DNA from: a virus
Lineage: Duplodnaviria; Heunggongvirae; Uroviricota; Caudoviricetes
Length of the DNA: 30,367 nt
IMG/VR virus record: IMGVR_UViG_3300036885_000228
Coordinates: 1-30,367 of that record
Strand: one strand, 5' to 3'
Shown here: positions 4,840 through 19,854 of the stretch, one piece after another
Numbering within the stretch: position 1 is the stretch's first letter
Layout of the letters: each line of letters starts with the position of its first letter
The notes under the pieces: generated by a model
Databases searched by the model: none
Told to the model about the DNA's origin: nothing
What the model saw: only the letters and a program-made list of their open reading frames with translations
Made by a program: the position numbers and the translations under genes

Positions 4840-6127
4840 ATTTGTTGCTATTATTTCTGGCATCCAAGGAGGGAAAACGTTTGCTGGTGCTATATGGTCT
4901 CGTTTACAATATGATGAATTTCAACAGGATGATGGATTAATTTGTGCACCAACATATAAAATATTATCACAATCAACATTACCGAAGTTCTTTGAACTAA
5001 ATCCAGATCTAAGAAAGTATTATAGAGAAGGAAGAGGGACAATTGAAGCTCCAGGTCGTGGTATCATATATATCCGATCAACTGAGAACCCAAACGTGAT
5101 TGAAGGTATGACATTACGTTGGATATGGGCAGATGAAGCAGGACAAATGAAACTCCAAGCTTGGATCAATATTCAAGGTCGTGTAAGTATATTGAAAGGC
5201 AAAGTATTCATAACATCAACACCATATAAGATAAACTGGCTTAGAACTGATTTCTTTGAAGCTTGGAAAAAGTGCAATTTAGACTATGATGTAGTTCAAT
5301 TTCGTTCAGTTGATAACCCTTATTTCCCTGCAGATGAATTTGAGAGAGTTAAAAATACGATGGATAGAAGGATATTCGAAAGACGTTATTGCGGATTATT
5401 CACAAAGATGGAAGGATTGGTGTATGAGGACTTTAACTATTCAGCAGCGTGTTCTGACAAATTGCCTAACAAGTTTGATACTGTGATAGGTGGAGTGGAT
5501 TGGGGATGGAATGCTCCTGCAGCAATAATTATAATTGGTATTCATGACAATACATATTATATTATAGACGAATTCTATCAAGAACATCAATCTACTGAAG
5601 ATCTAGCAAAAGTAGCATTAAGATTCAAAGACCAATATGGTGTTTCAATGTTCTACTGTGATAGTGCTGAACCAGATAGAATAGAAGTTTTCAAAAAGAC
5701 TGTAGAAGCAAAAGGATCAAATAAAGACATTTCCTTTGGTGTTGAAAAGATTCAAGGATTGATAAAAGAAGGGAAATTCATAGTTCATCCAAAATGCAAG
5801 TTCTTTCTTGAAGAAATAGAAGCATATCATTATCCTGAACAGAAAGAGAATAAAGCAGAGAAAGAGAATCCAGAAAAAGTAGATGATCATGCAATGGATG
5901 CAATGAGATATGCAATAGTTTCTTATTTGACACAAAACAAGATAATGTTTGTGCAACTTGAGGGAGATCGAAAGTATTTCAATCCAACACTAAATCGAGA
6001 ACCTTTACCTGCAATACCAGTTGCTAATGAGAATTTATCTGAGAAAGAAAGAGTAGAACAAATACGCAAACTCGATAGAGAGATAATTATTGAGGAAGAA
6101 CGTAAAAGATTTAATTCAGGGTATTAA
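4769..6127 (+). CDS. terL: Terminase large subunit (PBSX-like)
   Basis: Walker A SGIQGGKT, Walker B WIWADEA, ITSTP motif, RNase H-like GVDWGWNAP and DDHAMDAMRY. Confidence 0.95.
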   Translation: MIITEKQAINLTEFQDRAIFSPSRFVAIISGIQGGKTFAGAIWSRLQYDEFQQDDGLICAPTYKILSQSTLPKFFELNPDLRKYYREGRGTIEAPGRGIIYIRSTENPNVIEGMTLRWIWADEAGQMKLQAWINIQGRVSILKGKVFITSTPYKINWLRTDFFEAWKKCNLDYDVVQFRSVDNPYFPADEFERVKNTMDRRIFERRYCGLFTKMEGLVYEDFNYSAACSDKLPNKFDTVIGGVDWGWNAPAAIIIIGIHDNTYYIIDEFYQEHQSTEDLAKVALRFKDQYGVSMFYCDSAEPDRIEVFKKTVEAKGSNKDISFGVEKIQGLIKEGKFIVHPKCKFFLEEIEAYHYPEQKENKAEKENPEKVDDHAMDAMRYAIVSYLTQNKIMFVQLEGDRKYFNPTLNREPLPAIPVANENLSEKERVEQIRKLDREIIIEEERKRFNSGY

Positions 6128-6131
6128 AAAT

Positions 6132-6278
6132 ATGGCAAAATTAGGTTCAAAATTCTCAAAGGAATTATACCCTAATAGAGGAATGCGAAATAAAAAACAC
6201 TCGAAAGAAACTATAGAATTGAAATTTAAATGCAAAGATGGAGATAATACAATGGGAATCGGATTAGTAATTCTATGA
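6132..6278 (+). pseudogene. Remnant of a NUMOD3-type homing endonuclease
   Basis: GMRNKKHSKETIE NUMOD3-like motif in a 48-aa ORF with no nuclease domain; its TGA overlaps the FkbM ATG. Confidence 0.55.
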
Positions 6279-6901
6279 GTGAAATAAATACACTATATAA
6301 TAAGCTCTATAGAAAATTAGTATTTGACATTGGTTCGAATGTTGGAGACATGACAAAGAAATATTTGGACTTAGGAGCGGATATAGTTGTAGCAGTAGAA
6401 CCACAATTAGAATGCTTTGACAGCCCAAACTATAGTGAAGCAATTTGCGTAAATAAAGCAATATCAAATATATCAGGACAAAAGATAACGTTCTATCGGA
6501 ATAATCGTTCAGCAATATCTTCATGTTCTAATAGATGGTTAGAAGGCAGATTTAAAGGACAACAATGGAAAGAGGAAGAAGTAGAAACAATTACATTAGA
6601 TGATTTAATCAAGCAATATGGAGTTCCTTATTTTATCAAAATAGATGTTGAAGGATATGAGAGGATGGCATTAGAAGGTCTATCACAAAAAGTAGAATAT
6701 CTATCAATTGAATATACTGAAGAGTTAAAAGATGAAACTCTTAAGTGCATTGAAATGCTAGAAAAACTAGGATATGAGAAATGTACGATTATAGATGAAT
6801 ATCACAATAGGCCAATTAAAGATTTAGATAATATAGAACAAGTAAAAGAGTACCTAAACATATTAGACTACTTAGATTGGGGAACACTTTTATTTTACTA
6901 A
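6275..6901 (+). CDS. FkbM-family SAM-dependent methyltransferase
   Basis: VFDIGSNVG, AVEPQ, TITLDDL, IKIDVEGYE motifs. Confidence 0.9.
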   Translation: MSEINTLYNKLYRKLVFDIGSNVGDMTKKYLDLGADIVVAVEPQLECFDSPNYSEAICVNKAISNISGQKITFYRNNRSAISSCSNRWLEGRFKGQQWKEEEVETITLDDLIKQYGVPYFIKIDVEGYERMALEGLSQKVEYLSIEYTEELKDETLKCIEMLEKLGYEKCTIIDEYHNRPIKDLDNIEQVKEYLNILDYLDWGTLLFY

Positions 6902-6904
6902 ATT

Positions 6905-7504
6905 ATGTCAAGAAATACTTTAAGTATTATCACATCATGTTCAAGGCCAGAAGCAATCTTTGATGTTTATGAGTCAGTGAAAGGATCAGTTAAAAAACTT
7001 GAAGATAGAACTTATAATATTTACTGGTACATAATTTACGACGGTGAAAAAGTAAAAGAAGCAAATAAAAGGAACTTTACAGATGAAGATGCTTGGATTA
7101 TTGAAGGTTCTACAAGTGAAGTTAGTAAAGGATATAAGCAACGGAATTTTGCTCTTGACATGATTAAAGATGGATGGGTATGTTTCTTAGATGATGACAA
7201 TATAATGCATCCAAATTTTTACACTGAAATATCTAAGCATTTAGATGAAGACTTAAATGGGATTGTAATTGATCAGATTTTCAAATTTGGTAATAATCGA
7301 TTAGTTGCAAGACTAGAGAATATGAGAGTTTGTAATATTGATATTGCCCAATACATTCTGAGACGTGAATATATTGGGGATAAACGATTCGACATTGAAT
7401 ATTGTGCTGATGGACATTTCATTGAAGACTTATATCGAGCAAATCCAAAAAAGTTTCTATTTATCAATCAACCACTTTGCTATTATAATTATTTAAAATC
7501 ATGA
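6905..7504 (+). CDS. GT-A fold glycosyltransferase (GT2-like)
   Basis: IITSCSRP start, RNFALD, WVCFLDDDN (DxD), ADGHF. Confidence 0.85.
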   Translation: MSRNTLSIITSCSRPEAIFDVYESVKGSVKKLEDRTYNIYWYIIYDGEKVKEANKRNFTDEDAWIIEGSTSEVSKGYKQRNFALDMIKDGWVCFLDDDNIMHPNFYTEISKHLDEDLNGIVIDQIFKFGNNRLVARLENMRVCNIDIAQYILRREYIGDKRFDIEYCADGHFIEDLYRANPKKFLFINQPLCYYNYLKS

Positions 7505-7800
7505 ATGGAGTATTTCATGAAGGACAACCAACAAATCAGATTCCAGTATTATGTAGAGGAAAAGCACAAGGAAGTAATGAATGGCAATATGGTGATTTAA
7601 GTTTTTCAGTTACTCCAACAATTACTAGAAAAGATGCAAGTTTCTGGTTTAAATATTGGTATGTTATAAGTAATCAAATTGAGCCAAATTACACAGTAAG
7701 TTCTTTTGTTGCTCCAGATTCAATACAACTACAACTTTGCAGATTAGATGAAAAGAAAGATCTATTTGCAAATTTATTTAATATAAGAAAATCTAATTAA
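7501..7800 (+). CDS. Hypothetical protein
   Basis: ATGA-coupled to the upstream gene. Confidence 0.7.
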   Translation: MNGVFHEGQPTNQIPVLCRGKAQGSNEWQYGDLSFSVTPTITRKDASFWFKYWYVISNQIEPNYTVSSFVAPDSIQLQLCRLDEKKDLFANLFNIRKSN

Positions 7801-7816
7801 CTAACATACAACTTAT

Positions 7817-8059
7817 ATGAGCGGTGGTGCATATAAAAAATGTGATTGTTGTTCAAGGTTATTTCCAGAAGATGAATTGGAGACAGTAGTTATCAAAATT
7901 AAGAAATGCAAGACATGCAATCCTAATATTGATAGCATGATTCAGACTCGACCAGAATTAAAATCCCTTGGTGCTCCAGTAAGGAGACCTGCAAGTATTG
8001 CCGAGGTGTCAATGAAACCACCTTCTCCAGACGATGAAGGAGTTCCTCTTAAGAAATAA
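7817..8059 (+). CDS. Small Cys-rich (putative Zn-binding) protein
   Basis: CDCC...CKTC. Confidence 0.65.
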   Translation: MSGGAYKKCDCCSRLFPEDELETVVIKIKKCKTCNPNIDSMIQTRPELKSLGAPVRRPASIAEVSMKPPSPDDEGVPLKK

Positions 8060-10008: not shown

Positions 10009-10079
10009 CAGGGTATGGTATAAAGGAATTACGTCTGGTTTGGGACCAGATAATCGTGGTTCGATTCCACGTGCCTTGA
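10009..10079 (+). tRNA. tRNA-Pro (anticodon TGG), CCA not encoded
   Basis: Acceptor CAGGGTA/TGCCTTG, anticodon arm TCTGG-TTTGGGA-CCAGA, T arm CGTGG-TTCGATT-CCACG. Confidence 0.9.
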
Positions 10080-10085
10080 CAAAAT

Positions 10086-10158
10086 AGCAGGGTAGAGAAA
10101 TTGGAATCTCGCTTGGCTCATAACCAAGAGATTATCGGTTCGAGTCCGATCCCCGCAA
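10086..10158 (+). tRNA. tRNA-Met (anticodon CAT), initiator-like, CCA not encoded
   Basis: Anticodon arm CTTGG-CTCATAA-CCAAG, T arm ATCGG-TTCGAGT-CCGAT, 1:72 mismatch; only two of the three initiator G-C pairs in the anticodon stem. Confidence 0.9.
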
Positions 10159-10188
10159 CTAATACAAATTAAGGTGGCATAAATTACT

Positions 10189-14403: not shown

Positions 14404-14430
14404 ATTAAATAGTCGGTGGATATAAATATT

Positions 14431-16509
14431 ATGGGAGAAAATGATTTCAAGAAATTTTTTAAGGAGACATTATCGACTGAATCGATAATTGAAAAAGCAA
14501 GTAAAGGAATTCAATTTGTCTTGGGTTTCCCTAAAGGTGGGGAAGGTTCTGAAGTTCAATCTGTTCTTTTCGATAAGGATAATTGGACAACAGCAACTGC
14601 TCAGGCTTGGTTAAAGTCTCATGATTTTTCTGGGACTGAAGTAGATGAAAAAGAAAATACATTGAGGTTTAGACAGAAAGATCCGGGAAAGTATACGAGA
14701 TTTGCAACTATTACTCCTGGAACTAAGAAGCAAAGAGATTTCATGGATTCAATTCAAGATGACAAGACTAAGAAAATGGATGGTAATGATACATACGAAG
14801 GAGGCAATGGTGGGAATGTTGATTCATTAGAACAACCACACAAACCATTAAAACCTGGTCAGAAAACACCTGCTACAAAAAAATCAATTATTGATTTATC
14901 TGAAGTTGAAGAGTTTAAGAAAACTGGTGGTGCTCCATTTCAATTCTTTATTGAAAAAGCAAGCATGTCAGAGAGTGGAGAAATGCAAACAGTGATTGTT
15001 AGAAAGATCGACGGTACTGTTTTGAGAAAACAACAGTTACCAGAACATTTATATGTTGAAGGATTAGCTACGACAACGAATGTCGATCATGATCAAGAAA
15101 GAATGTCTCCAGAAGCTATTCAAGCAATGGAGGCTGAAATAAATAAAAACGGTGTGCCTCTTATCTCTGAACATTCAAAGGAATGGGACGGTGTATTAGG
15201 CAAGGTGTTCGAGGCAAGAGTAGATGACAGAAATCAATTACACATAAAAGCTGAGTTAGATAAAGATATGTCTAAATCAGTTGATTTATACAACGCCCTC
15301 AAGAAAGGAGCTCAACTCGGTCTGTCCATCGCAGGCATAGTTAAGAAAGCTGGACTTGAAATGGTCGAAGGGGTTGGAAAGAAATGTAAGACATTTTATG
15401 ATGTCTTGCTAAAAGAAGTTAGCGTCACTGGCAGACCAAGCAATTTCGATACCTGGTTAGTTGCTAAAGGAATTGCTAAATCAAGAGAAAGTGGGTTATA
15501 CGACAAGTACCTTAATACAGATTCGTATCAAGAATATTTGAAGTCAAACCCTCGGCTTGATTGGCAGTATTCAATTGCAAAGTCTGTTCAAGATGATGTG
15601 CTAAATAAAAACATTTTAAATATGGATGTTATAAAGAAAGAAGAAACTTCAGCGGACGTTAAGCCTGCTGAAGAGAAAACAGAAGAAGTGAAGGAAGAAG
15701 TAAAAGTTGAAGATACTAAAGCTGAAGAAGTGAAAGTAGAGGAAGTCAAGACTGAAGAAGTTAAAGCTCCTGAAGCTGAAACTGAAAAAGCTGAAGTTGA
15801 AAAAGATACTGTTGATGCAGACATTGAAAAGTCAGTTAGTGAACAAGTTGCAAAAGCGAAAGCTGAAACAATTAGTTCTGCAGTTGACGAAGTTGTTAAA
15901 TCGAGAATCGGAGCTATTGCTGCTAAAGCAAAAGCAATTGCTATGAAGCATTTAGACAATGCTTTTAAAGCGATGGGTGGTGATGAATCCGAAACAACTT
16001 CAGACACTGAAGATACTGAAACTAAACCTGCTCCTGCAAAGAAAACAAAGAAAGCTATTGCTGACAGTTCTACTTCAGAAGACACTTCAACTGAAAAGGA
16101 AATGGATTCTGATACAGATTCATCTGAAACAGAAACAAAACCTGCAGCGAAGAAAACCCAAAAAGCTAAACCTGCTCCAAAGACTGAAGATACTGATACA
16201 ACTGAAACTGAAGATGATGAAAGTGAAACCACTTCAAAATCTTTTGTTCAAGCAATCGTATCTGGAGTTACTGCAAATCTTGAAAAGAAACAAATGAGAG
16301 TCATTGGAAATCTTCAAGAAGCAGTAGAAAAGATGATGCAAGTGCCAAATGCTCGCAAGGGTATCGCAATTGCAATGGAGAAGAAGTTTGTTGGTAATGC
16401 AATCGAAGAACAAGTTGAAGAGGGAAAAGTTGAAAAATCCGAAGGAGTTAAAAAGACTGAATCCTTCCAAGATTATTTCAAGACTAATTTTTCCTCAGAG
16501 AAAAAATAG
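14431..16509 (+). CDS. HK97-type prohead protease fused to an acidic scaffold region (start ATG 14431 or GTG 14416)
   Basis: LYVEGLATTTNVDHDQE, LISEHS (catalytic His), GLSIAG (catalytic Ser), EVSVTGRPSN; long E/K/T/D-rich repetitive C-terminal half. Confidence 0.9.
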   Translation: MGENDFKKFFKETLSTESIIEKASKGIQFVLGFPKGGEGSEVQSVLFDKDNWTTATAQAWLKSHDFSGTEVDEKENTLRFRQKDPGKYTRFATITPGTKKQRDFMDSIQDDKTKKMDGNDTYEGGNGGNVDSLEQPHKPLKPGQKTPATKKSIIDLSEVEEFKKTGGAPFQFFIEKASMSESGEMQTVIVRKIDGTVLRKQQLPEHLYVEGLATTTNVDHDQERMSPEAIQAMEAEINKNGVPLISEHSKEWDGVLGKVFEARVDDRNQLHIKAELDKDMSKSVDLYNALKKGAQLGLSIAGIVKKAGLEMVEGVGKKCKTFYDVLLKEVSVTGRPSNFDTWLVAKGIAKSRESGLYDKYLNTDSYQEYLKSNPRLDWQYSIAKSVQDDVLNKNILNMDVIKKEETSADVKPAEEKTEEVKEEVKVEDTKAEEVKVEEVKTEEVKAPEAETEKAEVEKDTVDADIEKSVSEQVAKAKAETISSAVDEVVKSRIGAIAAKAKAIAMKHLDNAFKAMGGDESETTSDTEDTETKPAPAKKTKKAIADSSTSEDTSTEKEMDSDTDSSETETKPAAKKTQKAKPAPKTEDTDTTETEDDESETTSKSFVQAIVSGVTANLEKKQMRVIGNLQEAVEKMMQVPNARKGIAIAMEKKFVGNAIEEQVEEGKVEKSEGVKKTESFQDYFKTNFSSEKK

Positions 16510-16840
16510 TTAGTAGTATATAGGAATATATGAATGTCACCTCTACTGTTTATAGTAAACAATCTGAGGTCAACAGACATATACTAGATATTGACAATAC
16601 AATAAATATATTGGGCGAGAACCTCCCAAACTGGATAGATAGAATTTCTATCAACGAAAGTAAAAGCCAAATTGGTAGTTCTTAAATAGTGATTCGTTGC
16701 TATATGTCAAAACTTTGATATGTAATAGGTCGACAAAGCAATGTAATGCCACGAAAGTGGATAAATTACGCAAATAGATAAAACGAGTTCTTTACAAATA
16801 ATCTTAATGATTTGTACTAAATCAAAAAGATTTAAAACAA

Positions 16841-19834
16841 ATGGATAAAGTTAATCAAGCATTGGATAGATTCGAAAAAGCAGTCGATATTTCTTTCGCG
16901 GGTGGAATTCCGAATAGCATTTTAGCTAGACAGGATTTGGAAGCCGCAATCGTGAAACTTACCTATCGTGAGACTCCTCTCAGAGACATTGTCACAAGAG
17001 TCAAAGGTGAAGGTAGAGCACATTTGTGGAACCAAAGAATCAAATTAGGTTCTAACCCTGCAGAACTTACAACTGCTATGTTCTATGCCGATGGAGGAAC
17101 TCCTACGTTTTCAGATCCAGTTTATGTTCAAAAGACGGCCGCATATAAATACCTTAAACAAATTCTGAGGCATATATTTGTGAAAATATATGAAAATTTG
17201 GCTATATCGGTGAAACTCTTACATTGAGACAATACCGAGGGAAGATTCTAAAAATATTTAGAGAACCCGTAGAGACTACACGCCAAACACTTTATGCTTG
17301 AGATCCTTTACAAATATTGACAAATATGTTATAATATACTATATGAATAAAACATTAATCTGTCAAATTTGTAATAAAAACTTTGTAGTTAGAGATGGTT
17401 CAACTGCTAAATTTTGTAGTTATCATTGTTATTGGATATCGAAAAAGGGACGTAAATGGGGAAGACCATTTATTAAAGGTGGAAAATCTTGGAATTCGGG
17501 GAAAACCGGTTTGCAAATTTCACCATTTAAAGGTTTAACCAAATACGATCACCCAAGTCTGATGTCAAATTCAATAAAAAATTCTGAAAAGACAAAACTT
17601 CAGTATTTAAGAACTGGCAAAGAACAATGGTTATTAGATCGGAAAAGGTTTACTAGAAAAGGAAAGAAAAATTCTGATAAACAAAAGAATGCAGCAAGAA
17701 TTGCAATTCATAAGACAATAGAAAGTGGTAGATTAAGACAAAAATATCATGATACAAATATTGAAGTTAAAGTTGCCAATATTCTAAAAGACTTAGGAAT
17801 ACAATTTGAAAAACAAAAAAGAATACCGAAGATTGTCACACCTGATTTATATATACCGATAATTGATACACATATTTTCTGTGATGGTGATCATTGGCAT
17901 TCATTAGCAAATGTAGTTAAGCGAGACTTATTTGTTAATTCAAAATTGACAGAACTACAAATTAAATTTATTAGATTCAAAGGTTCTTTAATTTTAAAAG
18001 AACCTGATAAAGTAAAAGATCTCATTTTAAAGTTGATGATATAGTCCGAACTCTATGGTGACATAGAGAAATAAATAGAAATATTTATTCGATTACATCA
18101 TGTAATTCGTAACATACTGGGAATTGCGGCAAATATTACTGGACCCATGATTGCGAGTGGACGTTCGTTCACAGATATAGAAGCAGAAGTTGCAGAGGCT
18201 AAACTTCGCCAGGTTATTCAGGGCGAGGAATGGGCCCTATTTCACGGTGACTCTGTAGTCGATCCTTTGCAATTTGATGGACTTGATACACAATTAGTTT
18301 CTAACGTCATCGACAAAAGCGGTGCTGCGTTGAACCTTGAAGATGTCTGGAAAGCTGTAAAGCTTATCAGATTACAAGGTGGACAACCGACACACGTCTT
18401 TTGTTCCTTCGGCGTTCAGAATCAATTGAACTCTTTGCTTATTGGTGATCTGAGATATATTGCTCAGCAAGGTACAGTCGTTACAATGGGATTGAATGCA
18501 AATAACATTCAAACTCCTGCTGGCGTCTTACCTTTGATTGGTGATTTCTTCATCAACCCGAGCTCTCCTTACCAATACAACCAAGCTGGTTCTTCTGGCC
18601 CTCAAGGCAACTCTGTTTCTAGCGTTTACGTGTTAAACGTTCCAGAAATAAATATGGTTAAATCAAATTGACCATACAAAACTTCGCTATATCGGGGAAA
18701 GCTAAATCTAGTATTCTTGCTAGACATGTCAATCCCGAGGCAACCTACACATTGTAGAGAGTCCGTAGAGACTACACGCGAAGAATAGAAATTTTCTATT
18801 ATGATATAGTCCGACCATACGGGAAACCGTATGAGCAAGATAGAAATACTCTTGCAATACCAAATGGTAGATTAACAATTTAGGATTTGATGCCAATCGG
18901 GCGCACAGAACTTGCGAAAGTCGCAGACACGGTTAGATTTTACATAAACGAATACACGTCTATGGCCGTAAACTTTTGCGGCATATGATTGTGAAATCAT
19001 ATTAAAAATTGAGCTATATCGGAAAAACTCCCAACTGAAATAAGTGGACAATTCCGAGGAAAGACTTATAAATTATAAGTATCCGTAGAGACTACACGCT
19101 CGATATCTAAAAATCATGAAATGTTTAAATTGTAAGATTGAAGAAGCAAAAAGAGGTTGTCAATTCTGTTCTAAGAGTTGTCGATATTCTTATTTTTCTG
19201 GTGATAGAAATCCAGCTAAAAGAAAGGATGTCAGACAAAAACTTAAAGAAAAAGCTAGAATTAGAGAATTGAATCCTGACTATTCTTTAAAATTATGGCA
19301 ACGAAATAAATACGGTTGGATAACTAAAACCTGTTTATTTTGCAATACTGAATTTTCGACTCGTAGATGCTATCATCGGAAGTTTTGTTCATTCAATTGT
19401 AGTAAATTATATCATGTAGGCAAGAATCATCATTTTCCATATATTGAACGAAAACCGGGTGCCTATGGATATAATTGGCCAGAACAAAAAAGAAAAGTAA
19501 AAGAAAGAGATAAAAATATTTGCCAAATCTGTGGAAAAAATCAATCACAAAATTTTGGACAAAATATGGATATTCATCATCTTATTCCTTTTCTACTTTT
19601 TACTTCATATGAACAGGCTAACAAGTTAGAAAATCTTACAAGTCTATGCATTGAATGTCATAGACGTCAGAAAAGAAAACTTTCATGGTTTAGAGATAAT
19701 GATATAGTCCGAACTGCATTGGAAGATGCAGAGATAGACAGAAATGTTCTATCACTACTAAAAAGTAGTTAACAAATCGAAAAGCTGAACCTTGGCAAGC
19801 AGTTATCAAGAACGTTAGCGATCCGAATTCCTAA
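16841..19834 (+). CDS. Major capsid protein, spliced: exons 16841-17155, 18120-18659, 18884-18969, 19780-19834 (996 nt, 331 aa); SU10/SPO1-like HK97 fold
   Basis: Joining exons at U|...G| junctions gives a continuous frame: AAYKYL|GIAANITG, EINMV|DLMPIGRTELAKVADTVRFYINEYTSMAV|KAEPWQAVIKNVSDPNS*. Position after the protease; QFDGL and LAK..D.VRF motifs typical of this capsid family. Confidence 0.88.
17307..17335 (+). promoter_or_regulatory. Sigma70-type promoter inside intron 1
   Basis: TTTACA-N17-TATAAT with TGt extended -10; ATG 17343 lies 7 nt downstream. Confidence 0.7.
17343..18044 (+). CDS. Intron-encoded homing endonuclease (Zn-finger + DUF559/Vsr-like, EDxHD-type)
   Basis: CQIC...FCSYHC; T.IE..V..IL..LGIQFE.Q...PDLYIP...FCDGDHWH...RD. 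Confidence 0.85.
   Translation: MNKTLICQICNKNFVVRDGSTAKFCSYHCYWISKKGRKWGRPFIKGGKSWNSGKTGLQISPFKGLTKYDHPSLMSNSIKNSEKTKLQYLRTGKEQWLLDRKRFTRKGKKNSDKQKNAARIAIHKTIESGRLRQKYHDTNIEVKVANILKDLGIQFEKQKRIPKIVTPDLYIPIIDTHIFCDGDHWHSLANVVKRDLFVNSKLTELQIKFIRFKGSLILKEPDKVKDLILKLMI
18660..18883 (+). ncRNA. Group I intron 2 (224 nt, ORF-less)
   Basis: P1 TGGTT|/GACCA, P10 TCAAATT/GATTTGA, P3 TTCGC/GCGAA, P7 GAGACTA (18768)/TAGTC (18807), terminal G. Confidence 0.92.
18884..18969 (+). CDS. Major capsid protein exon 3 (86 nt; absent from ORF track)
   Basis: DLMPIGRTELAKVADTVRFYINEYTSMA + GT, bounded by predicted splice sites. Confidence 0.85.
18970..19779 (+). mobile_element. Group I intron 3 (810 nt) with HNH endonuclease ORF
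   Basis: P1 GCCGT|/GCGGC, P10 CTTTT/AAAAG, P2 ATATGATT/AATCATAT, P3 TTGAGC/GCTCGA, P7 GAGACTA (19088)/TAGTC (19705), terminal G. Confidence 0.92.
19116..19772 (+). CDS. Intron-encoded HNH homing endonuclease with Zn fingers
   Basis: CQICG...DIHHLIPF...NKLENLTSLCIECH; N-terminal CxxC/FCSxxC repeats. Confidence 0.9.
   Translation: MKCLNCKIEEAKRGCQFCSKSCRYSYFSGDRNPAKRKDVRQKLKEKARIRELNPDYSLKLWQRNKYGWITKTCLFCNTEFSTRRCYHRKFCSFNCSKLYHVGKNHHFPYIERKPGAYGYNWPEQKRKVKERDKNICQICGKNQSQNFGQNMDIHHLIPFLLFTSYEQANKLENLTSLCIECHRRQKRKLSWFRDNDIVRTALEDAEIDRNVLSLLKSS
19780..19834 (+). CDS. Major capsid protein exon 4 (55 nt; absent from ORF track)
   Basis: A + KAEPWQAVIKNVSDPNS*; completes the phase-2 GTA codon. 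Confidence 0.85.
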
Positions 19835-19854
19835 TTGAATTCAAAATTCGTATA

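Follow-up and report, generated by a model that had tools for sequence, protein, structure and literature searches.

The major capsid gene of an uncultured phage of the class Caudoviricetes, represented by IMG/VR virus record IMGVR_UViG_3300036885_000228, is interrupted by three related group I introns. The stretch of DNA analysed here (30,367 nucleotides (nt), hereafter ‘the window’) makes up positions 1 to 30,367 of this 94,367-bp record, the completeness of which is estimated at 77%. The locus at 16841-19837 on the plus strand comprises one capsid gene in four pieces: joining the exons at 16841-17155, 18120-18659, 18884-18969 and 19780-19834 gives 996 nt and a product of 331 amino acids with the C-terminus ...SDPNS, and the introns of 964, 224 and 810 nt together account for 1998 of the 2997 nt, i.e. 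two-thirds, of the locus. The restored frame and the intron share had both been proposed in an initial annotation made from the sequence alone, and both were reproduced here, the frame at exactly the same coordinates. Computation establishes how the ribozymes are built, where exactly the junctions lie and that the product is a capsid protein, and with a probability of about 0.92 the gene is transcribed as a 3-kb precursor that carries three related, mobile group I introns.

The spliced capsid gene

Exon 1 (16841-17155, on the plus strand like all features of the gene) carries codons 1-105 and ends in AAATACCTT, exon 2 (18120-18659) carries codons 106-285, exon 3 (18884-18969, 86 nt) runs from codon 286 to the first two bases of codon 314, and exon 4 (19780-19837) supplies the last base of codon 314 through to codon 331 together with the TAA stop codon (19835-19837). 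Exon 2 alone matches the PHROG major head protein family phrog_752 (3.8e-20) and the Pfam family SU10_MCP (30.7 bits, cut-off 24.1), and in tblastn searches it resembles the major head proteins of SPO1-like and Twort-like phages at 25-33% identity. An AlphaFold model (predicted local distance difference test, pLDDT, 77.8) of the protein from the related contig L001, which is 87% identical to the window product, was compared with known structures using Foldseek and matched the capsid protein of SPO1 (9vel, E 1.8e-22), alongside those of SU10, phi812 and HK97; these matches make the capsid assignment sound. The gene product is, as judged from this modelled fold, an HK97-type major capsid protein, and the identity first given to the gene is upheld.

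A scan of IMG/VR with exon 2 recovered six related contigs, four of which (L001, L003, L005 and L006) encode uninterrupted homologues, 65-87% identical, that align end to end with the spliced product, exon 1 included. Alignment to intronless homologues had been suggested in the initial annotation as a check on the junctions, and it was found that not one residue is inserted or missing relative to these four proteins at AAYKYL/GIAAN, EINMV/DLMPIG or SMAV/KAEPW (the slash marks the intron position); DNA alignments confirm the junctions to the base. No core-less mini-introns were found in the window, the comparison of the spliced product with the L001 protein showing one single-residue gap only. 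It had also been predicted that standard gene callers would fragment or miss this gene. Indeed, open reading frame (ORF) calling yields separate ORFs at 16841-17227 and 18147-18671, routine Rfam scans miss the introns as well, and many fragment-sized relatives of the capsid protein are present in the protein databases.

Anatomy of the three introns

In all three introns the base before the 5′ splice site is a T (U in the RNA) and the last intron base is a G. A contiguous guide sequence lies within the first 27 nt of each: P1 is formed by its 3′ part and the final 4-6 nt of the exon before the intron, with a U.G wobble at the end, and P10 by its 5′ part, which directly abuts the P1 part, and the initial 5-6 nt of the exon that follows. 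The pairings are CCTT/GAGG (P1) and GGAATT/AATTCT (P10) for intron 1, ATGGTT/GACCAT and GATTTG/CAAATT for intron 2, and GCCGT/GCGGC and AAAAG/CTTTT for intron 3. P7 is the same in each intron (GACTA/TAGTC and, beyond a bulged A, one further G-C pair, the arrangement of the guanosine site), and P3 is formed by TTGGC/GCCAA, TTCGC/GCGAA and TTGAGC/GCTCGA in introns 1, 2 and 3, respectively. The P1 wobble, P10, the terminal G and the P7 and P3 helices were thus all found as first described. P3, P4, P5, P6/P6a, P7, P8, P9, P9.1 and P9.2 could be located in each of the three, and P2, with a GTGA loop, is present in introns 1 and 3 and missing from intron 2. The ribozymes are mutually 61-72% identical, introns 1 and 3 being the closest pair.

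Intron 1 (17156-18119, 964 nt) has its guide at 17161-17170, P2 at 17171-17192, P3 at 17198-17202/17282-17286, P7 at 17274-17278/18042-18046, P8, whose loop holds an ORF, at 17299-17305/18018-18024, and P9, P9.1 and P9.2 within 18051-18106. Intron 2 (18660-18883, 224 nt), which has no ORF, places the same elements at 18664-18675 (guide), 18683-18687/18778-18782 (P3), 18770-18774/18807-18811 (P7), 18784-18800 (P8) and 18816-18869 (P9, P9.1 and P9.2). Intron 3 (18970-19779, 810 nt) interrupts codon 314 after its second base; its guide lies at 18973-18982, P2 at 18983-19002, P3 at 19009-19014/19098-19103, P7 at 19090-19094/19705-19709, P8 at 19106-19111/19689-19694, and P9, P9.1 and P9.2 at 19714-19769. 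A 14-mer from the R element, GTAGAGACTACACG, and a 12-mer from the S element, GATATAGTCCGA, are found at exactly three places each in the 94,367-bp record; the copies alternate, all on the plus strand and all in the capsid gene, and reversed-pattern controls gave none. The minimum free energy fold of intron 2 recovers P3 to P9.2 (z = -5.2).

A P7.1/P7.2 extension in the P3-P8 domain is the mark of subgroup IA2 (T4/Twort type; Michel & Westhof 1990). The gap from P7 to P3′ consists here of CAC only, and 1-12 unpaired nt separate P3′ from P8, which leaves no room for P7.1/P7.2; assignment to subgroup IA2 was rejected for this reason, although the covariance model described below links the introns to those of T4 and Twort.

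Covariance-model evidence

A scan of IMG/VR for the R element returned at least 115 stretches. A covariance model, R1, was made from 22 compact introns of other contigs, aligned and with the structure written in, and contains no window sequence. R1 matches intron 2 over its full length (122.9 bits, E 5e-32) and both halves of the two ORF-bearing introns: 17196-17345 (76.7 bits, the core match ending at about 17290) and 18016-18090 (49.4 bits) in intron 1, and 19008-19166 (61.8 bits, the core match ending at about 19105) and 19650-19754 (51.1 bits) in intron 3, with E-values for these halves from about 1e-12 (3.5e-12) to 1e-19. No other matches to R1 occur in the window or in the entire 94-kb record. 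The Rfam group I model RF00028, which has a gathering score of 50 bits, gives 60.8 bits for intron 2 on a short slice (281 nt), and it aligns P1 at the predicted splice site there and in introns 1 and 3 too. The search with group I models first proposed for this locus was accordingly positive for all three introns with R1 and, at the full gathering score, for intron 2 with RF00028.

Covariation was examined in an alignment of 117 family sequences, which was fitted to the model structure, so that the pair counts lean towards that structure: standard pairs occupy 93.7% of paired cells, as against 32-42% with the partners slid, both sides change in 37 of 44 pairs, and P7 is 99.6% paired. This covariation includes the P7 of the P3/P7 pseudoknot, which lies outside the structure of the model. 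R1 also matches the experimentally established T4 nrdD intron (53 bits, annotation confirmed), as well as two further T4 positions, which we take to be the td and nrdB introns. In Twort, three adjacent matches lie at 16817-17531, just downstream of the tail sheath gene; from their position this is presumably the three-intron gene orf142, which is not annotated in the record. R1 gave no match on SPO1, and no link to the SPO1 polymerase intron is claimed. A blastn search of intron 2 against 50,697 cultured-phage records returned no match.

Intron ORFs and an internal promoter

The ORF of intron 1 (17343-18044, plus strand) encodes 233 amino acids, with an N-terminal Cys4 zinc-ribbon-like module followed by a Vsr-like endonuclease domain (...FCDGDHWH...), and its TAG stop codon lies inside the S element. 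It matches the PHROG endonuclease family phrog_13076 (9.6e-5) as well as phrog_559, and its match to the Pfam family MTES_1575 (PF18741) falls below the cut-off; a sequence search of the PDB returned no significant match, the weak hit being AbaSI at E 0.19, and kinship with the I-Bth0305I family is not claimed. The ORF of intron 3 (19116-19772, plus strand) encodes 218 amino acids comprising two Cys-rich zinc-ribbon-like modules and an HNH nuclease domain, and it matches Pfam HNH (PF01844, 33.1 bits, cut-off 21.4), the PHROG HNH endonuclease families phrog_8446 and phrog_1271 (about 1e-17) and, weakly, a McrA-like HNH protein in the PDB (E 1e-3). This second ORF enters the S element in another frame, crosses P7′ to P9.2 and ends 7 nt before the 3′ splice site. 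Both ORFs begin in the P8 loop and have similar N-terminal Cys-rich modules. They are predicted from sequence to be homing endonucleases, and since the ribozymes that carry the Vsr-like and the HNH ORF are related, one scaffold hosts two nuclease types.

Within intron 1, the promoter-like element TTTACA-N17-TATAAT (17307-17335, plus strand), with a TG before the -10 hexamer and 11 of 12 consensus matches, ends 7 nt upstream of the ATG of the ORF. The same pattern with TG occurs at exactly 11 sites in the 94-kb record, all on the plus strand, whilst controls gave none, and the spacer of the intron-1 copy is nearly identical to those of several of the other sites. The intron-1 endonuclease may therefore be transcribed from this element, possibly as a leaderless or near-leaderless mRNA, and because the strong promoter upstream of its ORF is of the type that the phage repeats across its own genome, it is probably expressible independently of late capsid transcription.

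Relatives with and without introns

A broader IMG/VR scan yielded 48 related capsid loci, which were checked with R1. Nine, from eight distinct contigs, gave matches, all of these on the strand that encodes the capsid, and 39 were without a match; the intron-bearing loci range from one or two introns up to eight. Single related introns interrupt the capsid genes of L002 (4805-5775, after codon 30) and L004 (5644-5999, at GPMI/ASG), and two are found in that of L081 (about 5684-7907, minus strand). Further insertion positions were mapped among the relatives at about codon 100 and about codon 297, so that by our own mapping at least 10 different codon positions are used in the window and its relatives together; the mapped introns of the relatives lie inside the capsid gene. 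Related introns were also noted in capsid family loci of L198, L199, L201 and L205.

The richest locus is that of L031 (1050-5207, minus strand; the same contig as L208), where a capsid gene related to that of the window (48-57% identical) contains eight group I intron cores, all in the orientation of the gene. At precisely the site of intron 1 of the window lies one of these introns, which is without an ORF. The PHROG family of the intron-1 ORF recurs in ORFs of L031 introns. A 15-nt micro-exon, GCATATAAGTACCTT, encodes AYKYL, and a second one of at most 6 nt lies between cores 5 and 6, where the assignment of the junctions is ambiguous: sizes of 1, 4, 6 and 7 nt were weighed, and with 6 nt either the frame is broken or the intron that follows violates the terminal-G rule. 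With the junctions chosen, the L031 product aligns over its full length to the capsid family.

A second apparent insertion in L004 was rejected as an intron, being an in-frame stretch of about 73 amino acids (6475-6696) within the capsid protein's variable surface loop, perhaps a decoration-like domain. At L025:752-800 and at L106:2413-2460 and 4840-4890, the 5′ part of an intron is replaced by an ORF end, ...GYKVLRFWE.DI, which resembles a Vsr/DUF559 C-terminus; this places the endonuclease gene upstream of P4-P6 in L025 and L106, and not in P8.

Proposed mechanism and alternative readings

It is proposed that each ribozyme would use its guide to bind both flanking exons, the preceding one at its end (P1, the U.G pair lying at the cut) and the following one at its start (P10), and would then remove itself through two guanosine-dependent transesterifications to leave a continuous capsid reading frame. 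The intron endonucleases would cut or nick the intron-less capsid alleles of co-infecting relatives, and repair would copy the intron in. Intron 2, which lacks an ORF and is only 86 nt from intron 3, could be carried along by co-conversion. The endonuclease genes, the insertion in the most conserved codons and the patchy presence among relatives point to selfish mobile introns rather than to regulators.

Several results weigh against this reading. The frame of exon 1 stays open for 72 nt into intron 1, across P1-P5 (the ORF at 16841-17227), so that ribosomes on unspliced RNA could disturb folding. The match of the intron-1 ORF to Pfam Vsr (PF03852) reaches 26.4 bits, just under the cut-off of 27. 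With RF00028, introns 1 and 3 remain below the gathering score as ORF-split halves even on short slices (45.7 and 33.0 bits for intron 1, 45.4 and 33.1 bits for intron 3). In addition, no group I match was returned by routine Rfam scans of the whole window at the gathering threshold or by Rfam at E <= 10 on 3.3 kb, and RF00028 searched across the 94-kb record gave no match. As the same model scores well on short slices, these whole-scan misses are attributed to the speed filters of the searches and not to absence of the introns; such filters were seen to hide AT-rich phage introns.

The initial annotation had suggested that dependence on three splicing events might act as a timing control or a cost. 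Co-option of the introns to delay or throttle capsid production is an improbable alternative: the capsid protein does need three splicing events, and the strong early-type promoter within intron 1 would mean that transcription from exon 2 onwards is not purely late. The absence of an intron match from 39 of the 48 related loci, however, is a patchiness of the kind seen with mobile elements and unlike what a regulatory device under conservation would show; the insertions fall in the most conserved codons and carry homing endonuclease genes, and nothing in the sequence demands regulation. The suggestion of a timing control or a cost thus found no support and is regarded as speculation, the distribution and the endonuclease genes being those of selfish mobile elements.

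It is less probable still that at least one intron has lost the ability to splice and that the capsid gene is a pseudogene of a phage genome that is defective or in decay. The metagenomic contig is incomplete, intron 2 lacks P2 and the intron-3 ORF overlaps the 3′ core, all of which could be taken as signs of decay, but the core helices, guides and terminal G are intact in all three introns and the exons contain neither a frameshift nor a stop codon. Moreover, between the window gene and the coding sequence of L001, 150 codons differ by synonymous changes only and 42 carry non-synonymous changes, which indicates that the interrupted gene is evolving as a functional gene under purifying selection. 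The window shows no further capsid gene, the remainder of the 94-kb record not having been searched for one.

That the insertions are free-standing endonuclease genes dividing the capsid into separately translated fragments, or inteins, with no RNA splicing involved, is very improbable: split phage genes are known and the locus is called as two separate ORFs, but intron 2 has no ORF, exons 3 and 4 (86 and 55 nt) have no start codons, codon 314 is divided after its second base, the endonuclease ORFs are out of frame with the exons, and the ribozyme core is conserved and covarying. The splicing of the three introns from the capsid precursor, the activity and targets of the endonucleases, the use of the promoter and the co-conversion of intron 2 are inferred from sequence.

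Comparison with known systems

The known cases first listed for comparison were phage introns in DNA-metabolism genes and the three-intron gene of Twort; the latter stands, and the capsid-gene precedents in Tuc2009, LittleE (PMC3706429) and the crAss-like Zeta group (PMC7886860) had been omitted. The Twort gene orf142 contains three introns (Landthaler & Shub 1999, as cited in PMC6669764). The introns described here resemble those of orf142 and of T4 nrdD, td and nrdB in being related, compact phage group I introns that share the R (GUAGAGACUACA) and S (GAUAUAGUC) core elements, and Twort likewise has several of them in one gene of the late/structural region. They differ from the Twort case in that the host gene is the major capsid gene, that two of the three introns carry endonuclease ORFs and that there is no room for P7.1/P7.2.

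Capsid-gene introns have been described in other phages. In the crAss-like Zeta group, the capsid gene of the complete metagenome-assembled genome (cMAG) OLRF01000054 is in five fragments, and three of the segments between them bear group I signatures (Yutin et al. 2021, PMC7886860; also PMC10136315). This too is a split major capsid gene of an uncultured phage with the same annotation problem; the phage lineage is unrelated, however, and the capsid family is another one. The Zeta insertions were recognized by protein domains, whereas here the ribozymes, guides and exact junctions are defined, and Zeta genomes hold up to 14 introns (PMC7886860) as compared with introns in the capsid gene only, according to R1, within the 94-kb record. 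Mycobacteriophage LittleE has a capsid-gene intron that is spliced in vivo (PMC3706429), and a capsid-gene intron of lactococcal phage Tuc2009 is cited in the same source. In both, a highly expressed capsid gene contains a group I-type intron that itself holds a gene for a homing endonuclease, with a U before the 5′ splice site and a terminal G, as found here; they have one intron where the window has three, and the LittleE endonuclease is LAGLIDADG-like and encoded on the opposite strand.

The Jug jumbo gut phages (360-402 kb) contain a mean of 18.5 group I introns per genome, and splicing was seen in metatranscriptome reads for about half of the introns tested (PMC12880540). Short group I introns split essential genes in these phages as well (terL, nrdD and DNA polymerase), the endonucleases being of the HNH, PD-(D/E)XK and GIY-YIG types, but they are spread over the genome and not confined to one gene. 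An intron-encoded endonuclease of PhiPA3 serves phage-phage competition (PMC11620839); being a homing endonuclease carried by an intron of an essential phage gene, it may by analogy be a model for the action of the two putative enzymes described here on co-infecting relatives without introns, although the gene and the nuclease families differ. The three-intron capsid gene is a well-supported further example of a phenomenon already published in other phages.

Genomic context

The window has a G+C content of 33%, and its left part forms a head and packaging module with genes for a large terminase, a portal-MuF fusion, a head-tail adaptor and glycosyltransferases; the capsid gene has the portal-MuF fusion on one side and the head-tail adaptor on the other. 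An ORF of 697 amino acids (14416-16509) immediately precedes the capsid gene and thereby takes the place of a scaffold-like protein; it has no Pfam or PHROG match, and its C-terminal half is long, acidic, repetitive and rich in Lys, Glu and Thr. Adjacent tRNA genes for Pro (TGG) and Met (CAT) lie at 10009-10159, just upstream of the 1223-amino-acid portal-MuF fusion gene.

Significance

The locus provides a fully mapped case, with exact junctions, guides, two endonuclease types in one ribozyme scaffold and a phage promoter captured within an intron. Because the capsid gene is fragmented for ORF callers and routine Rfam scans overlook the introns, such genomes will be lost from capsid phylogenies and marker-gene surveys; the capsid genes of several relatives are likewise invisible or fragmented to ORF callers. 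If the endonucleases do cut co-infecting intron-less relatives, the introns would be weapons and not neutral passengers; it is a tentative suggestion, drawn from sequence comparison, that mobile introns in this phage lineage may have the capsid gene as their favoured battleground and that the introns may act as weapons in phage-phage competition. With members that range from zero to eight introns, the family is a good system in which to study the spread of introns from site to site within a single gene that is essential and highly expressed, and it is also suited to asking whether intron endonucleases influence competition between related phages.

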